Shown here: positions 8,033 to 13,557 of the stretch, piece after piece | How the letters are laid out: the number at the start of each line of letters is the position of its first letter | Position numbering within the stretch: the first letter of the stretch is position 1 | Virus record (IMG/VR): IMGVR_UViG_3300030708_000512 | Location: 1-25,668 of that record | Strand: one strand, 5' to 3' | DNA length: 25,668 bases | DNA from: a virus | Taxonomy: Duplodnaviria; Caudoviricetes | Position numbers and translations under genes: made by a program | The notes under the pieces: generated by a model | Told to the model about the DNA's origin: nothing | Seen by the model: the letters and a program-made list of their open reading frames with translations, nothing else | Database searches by the model: none

Positions 8033-9643
8033 TTATGCAAAAGTTGTAGTTCCTTTCTTCTTTTTCACTACAATTTCTTGCGCTTGGTCTTCTATTAAAG
8101 ACAACAAATATTCATTATGAGAGATAATAAATATTTTTTTATCAGAGGTTAGTTCGTCCATTAATTCACATAGACCTTTAACCCCTTCTCTATCTAAGGA
8201 GTCTGCTATCTCATCAAAGAATATAATGTTTGATTTCTCTGTACCTGCTAGTCTAAGTAGGTCGTTTAGTGATAACATTACAGCGAGAGATACTTTCTTC
8301 TTCTCACCTCCTGACATAGTATCGAAAGATACTTCTGAATCAAAGTTATAGATAGACTCTTTTAATACTTCATCAAACTTAATTGAGAAGTTTCCTTGAG
8401 TCAGTATACTTAGATAATAATTAGAACGGTCATTGAAAAATTCTAAAATGTTACGAATGATATACTTGATAAGACCTTGCTCTGAAAAAGCTTGTTCCCA
8501 AAATCTCATCAGGTCATACATCTTCTGTGATTCTGCCATTTCGGTAGAATACTTCTTAGACATTTTCTGTTGACCTCTAACTTGGTTTTGTAAAACTTTA
8601 ATTTCTACTTCTATCTTCTTTAGGTTTTCAATCAGTTCAAAATCACTAGCACTTATAGGGAGATGTAAACTGTCAATATTAGAATTTATTTTTTTAATCT
8701 TCTTCTGTAAGACACTTCTCTTATCGTATTGTTCTTCTAGAGATTTCTTATAATCCTTCAATTGATTATAAATTACTAATGGTTTCTTACCACAATGTTC
8801 ACATGTCGTATTATCCTCATACTTCTCTATGTTAGATTTTAATTTAGTAATCCTGTTAGAGGTGTAGTTTAGTGCTTCCTCTTGACTGCGACATTCTAAA
8901 ATCCACGAGTTTCGCTTAGTCTCAATCTCTTGTAGCTCAGATAAAGAGAACTTCTTAAACAACTTAGGGTCACCACCTTCTAATGTAGCAGCTGCTTTCT
9001 TTTGAGATTTTCTAAGCTGTGATATTCTATCTTTAAGCTTGTTACACTTTTGCAAGGACTCAGATTGTAACGTTGCTGATACCTTCTTCTCATTGTTGAA
9101 CTTTGTTTTTAAAGACCTAATCTTAGACCTATGTTTGAACAGGTCTGATAAGTTTAAAAAGTTTTGTATGATAGACCTTTTCTCATCAGGTGTAGCAGAT
9201 AGAAAGTTCATTGAGTTTTGCTGACCGAATACCATCGAAGCTAGGAAAACATTATAATTAATGTTCAACGTCTTCTCTAAGTATTCTTGAGTCTGCTGTA
9301 TCCCTTCTCTAGTAAATGATTTACCATCAATCTCTAAAAGTAAAGATGGTGGTTTCTTGGTTCTAGTAATTACAACGTTATCGTTTACAGTCAGAGTTAC
9401 TCTACAAGGAACTTTAGCATGTGAGTACCTTACATTCTTTTCTGTAGTTTTACGAATTGTCTTGCCGAACAAAGCAAAAGCCACAGCTTCTATTATTGTA
9501 GATTTTCCTGCTCCGTTAGAAGAAAGGGTCTTCGTATCTAAATTATGACCTGCAATATGGGTAATCCCATTATACTTTTCAAAATTTACTTCTGCTTCTT
9601 TTACTGAAAGGAAGCCTTCGATTTTAACTTTATTTATCTTCAT
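8033..9643 (-). CDS. recombination ATPase, T4 gp46 / SbcC-Rad50-like
   Basis: Walker A 'SNGAGKST', coiled coil with zinc hook 'CEHC', signature 'MSGGEK', Walker B 'IIFFDE', 'ISH'. Confidence 0.92.
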   Translation of the reverse strand: MKINKVKIEGFLSVKEAEVNFEKYNGITHIAGHNLDTKTLSSNGAGKSTIIEAVAFALFGKTIRKTTEKNVRYSHAKVPCRVTLTVNDNVVITRTKKPPSLLLEIDGKSFTREGIQQTQEYLEKTLNINYNVFLASMVFGQQNSMNFLSATPDEKRSIIQNFLNLSDLFKHRSKIRSLKTKFNNEKKVSATLQSESLQKCNKLKDRISQLRKSQKKAAATLEGGDPKLFKKFSLSELQEIETKRNSWILECRSQEEALNYTSNRITKLKSNIEKYEDNTTCEHCGKKPLVIYNQLKDYKKSLEEQYDKRSVLQKKIKKINSNIDSLHLPISASDFELIENLKKIEVEIKVLQNQVRGQQKMSKKYSTEMAESQKMYDLMRFWEQAFSEQGLIKYIIRNILEFFNDRSNYYLSILTQGNFSIKFDEVLKESIYNFDSEVSFDTMSGGEKKKVSLAVMLSLNDLLRLAGTEKSNIIFFDEIADSLDREGVKGLCELMDELTSDKKIFIISHNEYLLSLIEDQAQEIVVKKKKGTTTFA

Positions 9644-10655
9644 CTCTAATCATGTTGAGTGCACTAAGTAGTTCTTCCTTTTCAAATATAGAATCTTTAC
9701 TATCAATGTAATCATTAATAACAGAAGAATCTAAGGAGAATAACTTTTTATCAGGAGTGTAATCAGATACGAACTTAGGTAAGATATCTTCAAAAGATAT
9801 ATCTAAGTAATCTACATTGTAATCCTTGATTATTTTATCATGTAGTTGTCTCTCTACATATTCGTCTAGCCTATCAATCTTCAACCTCAAAACAATAAAA
9901 TAGTTTTCAAAATTTACTTTCTTGGCTATGCCATCTAACTCATCTAATGTACAAGCTATATGTTTGATTCCATACTTGATAGGAGTCCTAACCACTTGTA
10001 CAGTTTTATCTTTTCTAATAACTAAAGAATGTAAGTACTTGGAAGAGTTAGCTTCTCCAAATGAATTAGAGTATTGAGTTCCTAATACATGTATACGGTC
10101 ATCATATATTTTAGGTTTGTGTATATGACCTAAGAATGTATATTTCTTTTTAGGAAAGTGCCACCTTCTTAATTTAGATTCGTACAGATAATCTCCATTA
10201 GAAACACATCCCTCAAATCCAAAATGTCCAAACACATGGTTCTTGGCTTTCTTAACCTCTTCAACTATCTTTTCCTCACTTTCATAATGAGGTATAAAAT
10301 CAAAATTAACCCCCGCAATGTTTATAGTTTCAGTATCACATATAATGTGAGCTCTGTCTGCAAACAAAGATAAGGTGGAGTCTGAACTACCATCCTTCCT
10401 TATCGTATCGTGATTACCTCTTAACACATAAATGTCTTTACATTTAAGGCTATTTAGTAAATTACCAAAAGCTAGAAGTTCAGTGCCTCTAGGATTTCTA
10501 CGGTGAAAGATATCCCCTGCAATTACTACAGAGTCAGGTGGTTTAGTGTTAACTAGCTTGATTAATGTTTCTATCTGTTTGTCTAGAAATCCAGGAATGT
10601 AATCACTCCTTAAATGTATATCAGTTAGTAATGTAACTCGGTGTGTATTAGACAT
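9630..10655 (-). CDS. recombination nuclease, T4 gp47 / SbcD-Mre11-like metallophosphoesterase
   Basis: 'TDIH', 'AGDIF', 'GNHD', 'GHF', 'GHIH'; directly upstream of gp46. Confidence 0.92.
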   Translation of the reverse strand: MSNTHRVTLLTDIHLRSDYIPGFLDKQIETLIKLVNTKPPDSVVIAGDIFHRRNPRGTELLAFGNLLNSLKCKDIYVLRGNHDTIRKDGSSDSTLSLFADRAHIICDTETINIAGVNFDFIPHYESEEKIVEEVKKAKNHVFGHFGFEGCVSNGDYLYESKLRRWHFPKKKYTFLGHIHKPKIYDDRIHVLGTQYSNSFGEANSSKYLHSLVIRKDKTVQVVRTPIKYGIKHIACTLDELDGIAKKVNFENYFIVLRLKIDRLDEYVERQLHDKIIKDYNVDYLDISFEDILPKFVSDYTPDKKLFSLDSSVINDYIDSKDSIFEKEELLSALNMIRDEDK

Positions 10656-12169
10656 TATAATAATTCTGCAAGGTTTGTAGGGTTCATGTTAGTATCAAAG
10701 TGGACCTCTTCTACGCTTCCAAAAGAATCTCCAACTTCAACGTCGACCTTCATAGGTACTTTAAAATCCATATTGTATTTGGTCTTTAGATATGTTATAT
10801 CCTCCATAACTTCTTTGATAAGCTTAACAACCGCTTCCGTATTCTCAGTATCACATTGAACCTCAATACTATCGTGAACCGTAGCTAGTATTTCTACATC
10901 ATCCATACCTAACTCATTTATTCTATTTTGCATGTTTAGCAATGAATTTAAAACCATGTCTGACGTAGAGCTTTGTATAACAAAGTTTAACCCTTGTCGT
11001 AATGCTCTATATTGATAGCGAGTGATTGGACTATTAACGTTTGGAAGATTCCTACGTCTACCAAATAAACTCATAGAGTATCCATTCTTTTTAGTATAAG
11101 TGTTTACGATTTTCATAAACTTAAATATGCCTGGAAACTGAGTCTGAAACCTAGAGAAGATGTCTTTAGCGTAACCTTCAGACTTCCCTATTTGCTCTGC
11201 TAATTTTTTATAAGAACCTCCATACACAATCAAGAAGATACAAGACTTGGCTACCTGCCTTTCTTCTTTAGTGACATCTCCTAGCGTTTTGCTGAATACT
11301 AAAGATGCAGTATAAGTATGTAAGTCTTCTCCTGATTTAAACGCATCAATAAGATTCCTATCATTACTACAGTGAGCTAAAACTCTAAGCTCTGCTTGAG
11401 AGAAGTCAGCAGCTATAAACGTCTTACCTGAATCAGATAACATTAGGTTTCTAAGATTTACACCGTCTGCCGTAGTCCTAGGAAGTGTGTGAAAGGATAC
11501 ACCTTTACTTTGCTCTTTCTTTCTTCCTGCGGAATACTTAGAACAACTTAACCTTCCTGTAACAGTAGCTGCAAAGTTATACTGAGAGTATATCCTACCG
11601 TTACCATTGTTTTCTAATGCAGCCTCAACTCCCTTAACATAAGTCTTATATTGTTTAGATAATACCTTGTAAGCTAAAAGCTTTTCAATAAAAATTTTAG
11701 CAGGGTTTGTAGATGATAGTCCTTTGATAACACTTTTCAAATGTTCCTCAGTAATAGATGGTGCTTTTGTTTTTTCTGATACCATGGTCGGAATAAGACC
11801 GAACCCTTCTTTAGTAAACAATAAATCAGCAATCTCTCTAGTGGAGTTTGGATTCAACTCACCATCTAGAGGGGACAAATCATTCAACTCTATCACAGCA
11901 TCATCTAGCCTTTTACCTAACGTTACATCTAACTCTTTCAAGTATTCAGTATCAACCTTCATACCTCTGTTCTCAACTTCACCTAAAGCAAGAGTTACCT
12001 CTTTTAAAAGTTTATCATAAATGGGTGCTACGTGTAAAGACTTCATCTCTTTACGCATTTGCTTCCAACAGCGTAAAGTTAAGTCGCAGTCAGCAGCGTT
12101 ACCTATAGCCATAGAATGAAGAGGCATGTTAGCCCAATCGTGGTCAGCTCCGTTATTTACTGTAAGCAT
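10655..12169 (-). CDS. family A DNA polymerase, C-terminal part (ExoIII helix plus polymerase domain)
   Basis: 'TVTGRLS', motif A 'DFSQAELRVLA', motif B 'RQVAKSCIFLIVYGG', motif C 'TVHDS'; N-terminal 'GNAADCDLT' is ExoIII-like. Confidence 0.92.
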   Translation of the reverse strand: MLTVNNGADHDWANMPLHSMAIGNAADCDLTLRCWKQMRKEMKSLHVAPIYDKLLKEVTLALGEVENRGMKVDTEYLKELDVTLGKRLDDAVIELNDLSPLDGELNPNSTREIADLLFTKEGFGLIPTMVSEKTKAPSITEEHLKSVIKGLSSTNPAKIFIEKLLAYKVLSKQYKTYVKGVEAALENNGNGRIYSQYNFAATVTGRLSCSKYSAGRKKEQSKGVSFHTLPRTTADGVNLRNLMLSDSGKTFIAADFSQAELRVLAHCSNDRNLIDAFKSGEDLHTYTASLVFSKTLGDVTKEERQVAKSCIFLIVYGGSYKKLAEQIGKSEGYAKDIFSRFQTQFPGIFKFMKIVNTYTKKNGYSMSLFGRRRNLPNVNSPITRYQYRALRQGLNFVIQSSTSDMVLNSLLNMQNRINELGMDDVEILATVHDSIEVQCDTENTEAVVKLIKEVMEDITYLKTKYNMDFKVPMKVDVEVGDSFGSVEEVHFDTNMNPTNLAELL

Positions 12170-12171
12170 TT

Positions 12172-13170
12172 TTAATAAACATCTAGTTCGTTTGGATAAT
12201 ATTCCTTGGTTAAATCTTTCAAGGAGTGAGGTTTGTTCTCGTCGATAAGCGAGTGGATGATTTGACTGTCCTCTATGTTGTTAAAGTCTGTCAATCCCCA
12301 ATGTCTTAAAAACTTGTAATCGAATTTCATATTGTGAGCAATCTTTACTATATTAGGATTAGCCATTAGCTCTCCACATCTTTTCTTGATATGTGCAAGC
12401 TCACTATCAGTCCATTCCGATTCTTTGTGAAATACAGGAAACACAAAAGAATGATTATCTTTATATGCAAATCCACAAGTCAATAGTTTATGTTTCTGAA
12501 AATCAAGACCTTCTGTTTCAAGGTCAAACGCAACTGCTTCAGATTTAAAACATTCATCCATAAGTAAATCAAACTTTTCGATATCTCCGTTTATCAACTC
12601 GTAAGGAGAATCATCAAATTTATTTACTTTCAATATAAACTTAGAGTAAGAATTATTTAAGTCCTGTAAGAACAGGTCTCTTAACTTAGGTTCAGCATAT
12701 ATCGAAAATGGATGAAAAGAGGGAACGATATGAATCTCTGTCTCCTCCTCATCTGCAAGCTTCACTGTGAACTCTTTGCCTCGCTTGTTTCCGATACCTG
12801 ATTTCTTGGTCAAGGTTTTCAAAGCTAAGTTGCCTAGAGGTATCACAAGGTCAGGCTTAATAGCCATCAGGTCCTCTTCCAGAAGCTCTCTATGCTTCGC
12901 GAATAGTTCTTTCGTCATGTCTTCCTCCTTAATGTTAACGTCCTTCACAGCAGCTACAAACTGGTATGAGGTGGAGGGTAAATCGCTCTTTGCAATCAAA
13001 TCAGTAAGAACTTTGTACTCATCATCATTGAATTCATATACTCTTCCGTACTTACGTTGATAAGAATCATGTATAAATACAATCTTCTCATCTCCTACGG
13101 GTAGTCTTACAAGGTCGTTTGTGCATTCTTGATTTTCAAAAGAATTAAATAAATTTTCTAAGTCACTCAT
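12172..13170 (-). CDS. family A DNA polymerase, N-terminal part: UDG family 4-like domain plus 3'-5' exonuclease motifs I and II
   Basis: UDG-like 'IKPDLVIPLGNLALK...RG...PSFHP'; ExoI 'AFDLETEG'; ExoII 'AHNMKFD'; 'HSLKDL'; ends before ExoIII. Confidence 0.85.
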   Translation of the reverse strand: MSDLENLFNSFENQECTNDLVRLPVGDEKIVFIHDSYQRKYGRVYEFNDDEYKVLTDLIAKSDLPSTSYQFVAAVKDVNIKEEDMTKELFAKHRELLEEDLMAIKPDLVIPLGNLALKTLTKKSGIGNKRGKEFTVKLADEEETEIHIVPSFHPFSIYAEPKLRDLFLQDLNNSYSKFILKVNKFDDSPYELINGDIEKFDLLMDECFKSEAVAFDLETEGLDFQKHKLLTCGFAYKDNHSFVFPVFHKESEWTDSELAHIKKRCGELMANPNIVKIAHNMKFDYKFLRHWGLTDFNNIEDSQIIHSLIDENKPHSLKDLTKEYYPNELDVY

Positions 13171-13182: not shown

Positions 13183-13557
13183 ATGGCTAAAAAGAAAAAG
13201 AAAAAATCCCATTACTTAAATAATAAGGATTTCGAGAAATTGATAAAAGATTATTTAGAAGACCCATCTACTTATGAAAGCGAGTTGGTGGAGAAATTGG
13301 ACATTTTAATTACCAATATTTTACACACGTTCAAATTTAGAGTTGACCCTGATGATGCGAAGCAGGAATGTTTTGCATTAGCTTTCAAAGTTCTTAAGAA
13401 TTTTGACCCGGAGCATGGCTCAGCCTTTAATTACTTTACTACAGTGTTCGTTAATAATCTAAAATTAATGTATACTAAAAACAGAAAGTATAACGAAAAA
13501 ATTAAAAAGTATCAAGACATCCATACCCCTGAGTACCTAAGAAAGCAAGATTCCTAA
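13183..13557 (+). CDS. late-transcription sigma factor, T4 gp55-like (compact)
   Basis: 'HYLNNKDF', 'DDAKQE', 'NFDPEHGSAFNYFTT' match the gp55 / sigma region 2 pattern (HYVNN...NFDP...AFxYFT). Confidence 0.75.
   Translation: MAKKKKKKSHYLNNKDFEKLIKDYLEDPSTYESELVEKLDILITNILHTFKFRVDPDDAKQECFALAFKVLKNFDPEHGSAFNYFTTVFVNNLKLMYTKNRKYNEKIKKYQDIHTPEYLRKQDS

Follow-up and report, generated by a model that had tools for sequence, protein, structure and literature searches.

Family A DNA polymerases (PolAs) that carry a UDG domain occur in the N4-like cluster 17, in SPO1/SP-10 and in the SP15-like phages phiLo and YerA41 (9qhs) (PMC10201439, PMC13697223). In the available text of Czernecki 2023 (PMC10201439) these UDG-PolAs are presented as single chains, and the word "split" has 0 occurrences in the main text of PMC13697223. 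Split PolAs are already known, with the cut at the exonuclease/polymerase boundary or inside the polymerase domain. As far as the available text of the sources goes, the PolA gene of the T7-like cyanophages S-SBP1 and S-TIP37 has undergone fission between exonuclease and polymerase, for which a frameshift was dismissed and a heterodimer predicted (PMC10201439, PMC12695635); in the OM43 phages MEP401/402 an unrelated ORF separates the two ORFs that encode PolA, the cut lying inside the polymerase domain (PMC10580990); and in CCPol-MP of staphylococcal SCCmec a polymerase chain that opens with the last exonuclease-domain helices is partnered by an unrelated beta-barrel, MP (PMC10201439). A two-gene phage polymerase of family B, that of PhiKZ, is cut in a palm insertion and was shown to be a stable active heterodimer (PMC13648687). 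Other splits or none are described in the available portions of PMC10580990, PMC12695635, PMC13648687, PMC13697223, PMC7824862, PMC5649160, PMC5628999, PMC11348598, PMC9069017 and PMC9959647, and in the main texts of the open full-text literature, a scope outside which most subscription papers fall, we found neither a PolA cut between ExoII and ExoIII nor a three-gene PolA.

Here, the notable features are a PolA cut through the exonuclease site and its three-gene relatives. The locus belongs to an uncultured marine phage, of whose genome 25.7 kb are in view; this whole stretch is referred to as the window. It contains phage-type genes (Gp23-type capsid protein, DnaB-like helicase, SSB) as well as ribonucleotide reductase, GroES and SbcCD-like genes. 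The polymerase comprises the following features:

12172..13170, minus strand: N subunit gene (332 aa), encoding a degenerate UDG-like domain of family 4 followed by the initial two thirds of the 3'-5' exonuclease domain
12631..13092, minus strand: UDG-like domain, about residues 27-180 of chain N, with GEAPG (motif A) changed to HDSY and His153 of motif B kept
12511..12528, minus strand: ExoI FDLETE, chain N residues 215-220, D216/E218 corresponding to Pol I D355/E357
12319..12336, minus strand: ExoII HNMKFD, chain N residues 279-284, D284 corresponding to Pol I D424
12170..12171, minus strand: gap of 2 nt between TAA and ATG, an insertion slot in relatives
10655..12169, minus strand: C subunit gene (504 aa), the last exonuclease-domain helices plus thumb, palm and fingers
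12089..12136, minus strand: exonuclease tail of chain C, with W12 corresponding to Pol I F486 and ExoIII G23-N-A-A-D27
11699..11722, minus strand: thumb-tip loop, about residues 150-157 of chain C, intact in the window and the second-cut site in three-gene relatives
11405..11407, minus strand: polymerase motif A aspartate D255 of chain C
11222..11260, minus strand: polymerase motif B RQVAKSCIFLIVY, whose F312 is aligned to the Phe in AKAINF of Klenow
10871..10879, minus strand: polymerase motif C VHD of chain C
9630..10655, minus strand: SbcD/Mre11-like nuclease gene, its start overlapping the polymerase stop (TAATG)

The ExoI, ExoII and ExoIII residues together form one two-metal exonuclease site, and in the window its four carboxylates are present and spread over two chains, three on N and one on C. 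In the alignment with E. coli Pol I, G23 of the chain C motif GNAAD (residues 23-27) falls on Y497 and D27 on D501, and F312 lies at the 762 position. Chain N matches PF03167 (UDG, E 3e-6) and PF01612 (exonuclease), the UDG domain of family 4 lying N-terminal to the exonuclease as in UDG-PolAs, and chain C matches PF00476 (E 5e-83), aligns with Klenow (E 1e-59) and holds motifs A, B and C in a PolA palm/fingers fold, which places it in family A. On the PHROG 17 profile the two chains cover adjacent positions (479-785 for N, 794-1240 for C). Foldseek relates the UDG-like half of chain N to 4zbx and returns 9qhs as the top match of the chain. The single-chain AlphaFold models reach pLDDT 86 and 81 for chains N and C, with low confidence over the last 22 residues of N and the first 60 residues of C; weak confidence at both free ends would fit a missing partner chain, a weak hint.

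Compared with the described systems, the window shares the domain order UDG-exo-pol with single-chain UDG-PolAs, and the loss of the UDG motif in its clade resembles the N4-like group, but the split clade has two or three genes, Gly in place of the ExoIII Tyr and no linker helix. With S-SBP1 and S-TIP37 it has in common phage PolA gene fission, a dismissed frameshift and a predicted heterodimer; in contrast, its cut lies between ExoII and ExoIII and is deep, the gap of relatives takes up genes, and instead of a whole exonuclease and a whole T7-like polymerase gene we find ExoIII on the polymerase gene, a UDG-like domain and Phe at motif B. Chain C opens like the polymerase chain of CCPol-MP, which unlike the window has no complementary exonuclease gene; the relatives resemble the OM43 phages in their intervening ORFs but not in the exonuclease domain, which those phages keep whole; and the likeness to PhiKZ lies in the two genes.

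The coordinates, the Exo and polymerase motifs and the junction layout given in the initial annotation were re-read on the window and are as it described them: chain N ends in ELDVY*, AA follows, and chain C starts with MLTVNNG in the -1 frame of the first ORF, a frame that is open back to about 12280. It had named two findings that would speak against a genuine split, namely an extra base fusing the frames and close homologues that are all single-chain. Neither occurred, as no indel is listed at the junction, which contigs of two other studies (X6 record 18, X12 record 7) span without a gap, and none of the 89 loci with both ends is fused (0/89). Four sequencing runs were compared at the junction, a third one of which contributes just 27 letters on one side. 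For the idea that an assembly error or a recent inactivating lesion made the split we found nothing in favour, and the same cut in 88 other contigs, the gap-free bridging contigs and purifying selection on both flanks of the cut reduce its probability to practically nil. Beyond what had been annotated, our analysis revealed the UDG domain, the insertion slot, the Tyr-to-Gly change and the three-gene relatives.

Three scans covered 130 loci. Excluding 28 whose contig stops within or short of one piece, and 13 that duplicate a contig, left 89 loci (88 contigs and the window) with 77 distinct N sequences. In the first IMG/VR scan both ends were available in 11 of 13 loci, and in each of these the cut fell on the same residue; over the full set, this holds for 89/89 loci, which answers the initial question of whether relatives break where the window does. 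The distance between the two halves is far from constant: the gap is at most 2 nt (-17 to +2) in 38 of the 89 loci, and 172-3732 nt in the other 51. Short gaps are mostly -1 nt (31 loci) or +1 nt (4 loci), with +2, -7 and -17 nt occurring once each, and gap length modulo 3 is distributed 53/24/12, so that all three frames are represented. The second ORF opens with M-L in 87/89 loci.

These gaps bear directly on a programmed -1 frameshift or bypass at TAT TAA AA ATG, which would yield one chain and which the open -1 frame of the window from about 12280 and the adjacent ORFs in 38/89 loci might suggest. Neither a conserved frame offset nor a slippery site was found, however; adjacent gaps vary, the second ORF keeps its M-L start, and in 51 loci, the nearest relative of the window (L001/L014, 89-93% identical) included, the halves lie 0.17-3.7 kb apart with complete genes in between, most frequently glutamine synthetase (GS). 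Because gaps vary and 51 loci hold 172-3732 nt, a frameshift is excluded as the mechanism of the family, and for the window we rate it as highly improbable. The initial preference for a heterodimer with translational coupling thus gains from the intervening genes of the relatives and from their use of all three frames, as far as sequence comparison can tell.

A GS gene (PF00120 and PF03951; about 320-340 aa, L001:2995-4017 and 30 other loci) lies in 31 of the 51 inserts, the others holding small ORFs or a ThyX-like gene (named by reading). In 43/51 insert loci the new ORF starts -1 to +4 nt from the N stop, and in 43/51 no more than 25 nt separate the end of an ORF from the C start, an arrangement that fits stop/start coupling. 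The start of the SbcD/Mre11-like gene overlaps the polymerase stop, so stop/start coupling appears to be the local rule, and chains N and C would be translated in the same manner. The sister of the window, L001/L014 (89% and 93% identical), has a GS gene in the gap, as do 4/5 remaining members of the window's seven-row group, for which reason the 2-nt gap of the window most likely arose through loss of this gene. GS-plus and GS-less alleles were seen side by side in three DNA runs (contigs only), the GS-less form being a joint that skips 1005 nt, with 30, 30 and 47 letters on its shorter side. This joint was absent from the contigs of the one RNA run searched (X20, 21% of words), which cover the gap only as contigs of the GS-bearing strain.

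The skipped form is also relevant to the idea that the gap is an intron or split intein, the parts being joined again at the RNA or protein level. Introns are known from phage PolA genes (PMC10580990, in the text available) and gap content is variable, but the skipping joint occurs in the three DNA runs and not in the RNA run (contigs only), Rfam gave no match in four insert-bearing loci, gaps of -1 to 2 nt are too small, and both ends align with the exonuclease to about 10 residues, leaving no space for intein halves. The initial annotation, which had seen no intron or intein, agrees with this, and such rejoining is as improbable as the frameshift.

A second cut was found in 38 of the 89 loci, in which the polymerase is encoded by three genes: N, a middle piece of 157-169 aa that holds ExoIII and half the thumb, and the remainder. 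Another 9 end after a short middle piece. Of the three-gene loci, 33 rows make up a distant clade and 5 a group that sits inside the two-gene forms, and the new helical ends at the thumb cut are common to both. In the nested group (L031) the thumb-tip segment scores equally against both clades (49-53 versus 51-53 bits), and its flanks favour the two-gene clade. One origin with recombination and two origins fit these sequences alike. As the best reading, the replicase of the relatives would often be heterotrimeric. An extra ORF of about 165 aa lies between the middle and last pieces in L121, L123 and L125; that of L121 (6992-7500) contains a P-loop-like GKMRAGKD and by reading resembles a nucleotide kinase.

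The split is real, old, inherited and clade-wide. Among 107 N-length proteins, nearly all have a P-x-E-L-E-x-F-like tail (except P0107 and P0099), and a search for longer forms, in which only 7999 candidates were scored, gave 10 fused proteins, the best 32% identical. The best 120 chain C homologues are all 327-533 aa long (lengths to 891 aa searched). When 1.84 billion representatives were searched exhaustively with the N profile, the top 67 matches measured 174-361 aa, some being fragments, and the first fused UDG-PolA followed at 204 bits, a ranking that favours split forms since the profiles were built from split members. The nearest fused relatives are UDG-PolAs of 780-900 aa. In the polymerase-domain tree, set against the 22 best-scoring of 43 fused relatives, 20 chosen split rows share one branch (SH-aLRT 100, stem 0.69), and two FastTree trees are in line with a single split branch; all trees are FastTree or quick IQ-TREE trees with long outgroup branches. 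The simplest reading of these data would be one old fission of a UDG-exo-pol gene.

A search of cultured phages yielded no close relative, the matches being only about 25-31% identical. Caulobacter phage Kuura (OQ067476) resembles the relatives in having a UDG and ExoI/II gene (gp29), two small genes and an ExoIII and polymerase gene (gp26), a split of which the available text of PMC9959647 makes no mention. It differs in being a 43-kb podovirus and in keeping the ExoIII Tyr (YNGLD), scores 29 bits to the chain C profile and has a very long branch that does not join the split clade. Its cut is probably an independent one in the same loop; given its distance and its Tyr, the loop has apparently been cut more than once, and as Kuura is cultured, phage viability and a cut between ExoII and ExoIII can go together. 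In bacterial genomes, a PolA that appears divided behind the ExoIII helix into two ORFs occurs in Bacteroidota, mostly Flavobacteriales (L176, L178, L184, L188, L189, L195, L201, L206, L208, L216, L221, L223, L226), which appears to be a separate fission at the exo/pol domain boundary.

Both chains keep their carboxylates of the proofreading site. Stand-alone N proteins, which occur in the relatives as well, keep the ExoI Asp in 158/159, the ExoI Glu in 157/159 and the ExoII Asp in 158/159, and the ExoIII Asp of chain C is present in 89/89 loci; even where overall identity drops to about 30%, the carboxylates of the two chains hardly vary. Five pairs were compared for selection: the exonuclease part of N gave pN 0.04-0.09 and pS 0.54-0.96, and the first 45 codons of C gave pN 0.04-0.10 and pS 0.35-0.75, similar to the remaining C gene. 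Since the cut falls in the middle of the proofreading domain, docking of the two proteins is likely required for the site to form. We consider it very probable from these patterns that the two genes encode a heterodimeric PolA whose proofreading site takes three carboxylates from N and the fourth from C. According to this model, a single ancient fission of the UDG-exo-pol gene would have left a chain C whose first 45 residues pack on the exonuclease core of chain N as in single-chain enzymes; this head would complete the exonuclease fold, the chains would associate like the domains of single-chain UDG-PolAs, and the enzyme may act as the phage replicase, judged from the 25.7-kb window in view, and still proofread.

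Two changes at the site were found throughout the split clade. The ExoIII Tyr is Gly in 89/89 split loci (Tyr in 33/37 fused homologues), which could weaken proofreading, and the linker helix, the Pol I F473 helix, is lost at the break. Together with the loss of UDG motif A and the example of CCPol, which according to the available text has three exonuclease helices and no exonuclease partner (PMC10201439), they lend some weight to a reading in which the chains associate but proofread poorly, or in which N is a separate nuclease or DNA-binding accessory and C polymerises alone. This we hold to be unlikely, as it is at odds with the near-invariant carboxylates, with a chain C ExoIII Asp that would be of no evident use absent chain N, with purifying selection on the 45-codon head equal to that on the rest of C, and with the agreement of the N and C trees. 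In the preferred heterodimer, a terminal aromatic residue of chain N might, speculatively, enter the site in place of the lost Phe473/Tyr497; the terminal residue is F, L or Y in 132/159 N proteins, but this filling is a guess because fragment alignment did not fix the register and did not place the residue reliably onto F473.

The UDG fold of chain N is likely inactive, because HDSY replaces GEAPG in the window and a GExPG-type motif A is found in 0/159 stand-alone N proteins (versus 19/37 fused ones), so that the window lacks the combination of GE.PG and motif B expected of an active UDG, as in SPO1- and SP15-like UDG-PolAs. UDG inactivity is also reported for N4-like enzymes. The N-terminal CxxC is kept in 54/159 N proteins and absent from that of the window. 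The domain may instead serve as a non-catalytic DNA-binding or structural module.

A PolA gene can thus carry a break within the two-metal proofreading site and a further one in the thumb while purifying selection persists throughout a deep clade, and the first of these breaks has been turned into a coupled slot for auxiliary metabolic genes within the replicase. The clade offers natural split points for polymerase engineering and a natural test of proofreading supplied in trans, and explains why marine viromes contain many "exo-less" PolAs of 500 aa or 370 aa and genes mis-named "UDG family 4". If the site is indeed rebuilt in trans, proofreading would hinge on a detachable subunit. More tentatively, and with considerable doubt, the loci may define a large undescribed clade of marine phages with a T4 capsid that replicate with a PolA of two chains, or three in a sister clade; the C-terminal aromatic residue of N would stand in for the lost Tyr497/Phe473 in a site rebuilt in trans, and the supply of this subunit would be tuned by coupled metabolic genes such as GS.

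Among L154, L155 and L156, one Planctomycetales MAG includes two contigs with split forms, and a Prochlorococcus single-cell assembly includes a 130-kb contig with a three-gene form; because of binning, both are weak host hints. In one contig alone (L059:4995-5965) a change of reading frame at about residue 290 interrupts the N gene, which is probably due to an error or a lesion. A promoter/terminator scan gave 17 sites versus 10.9 expected, none informative. An 820-aa ORF (window:14753-17215) without a Pfam match adjoins a PD-(D/E)XK resolvase-like gene of the opposite strand. Finally, a gene for a 124-aa sigma-70 region 2-like protein (13183-13557, plus strand) lies head to head with the N gene, with only 12 nt between the starts and so no room for a promoter there, and this arrangement (window:13170-13183) is kept in relatives.
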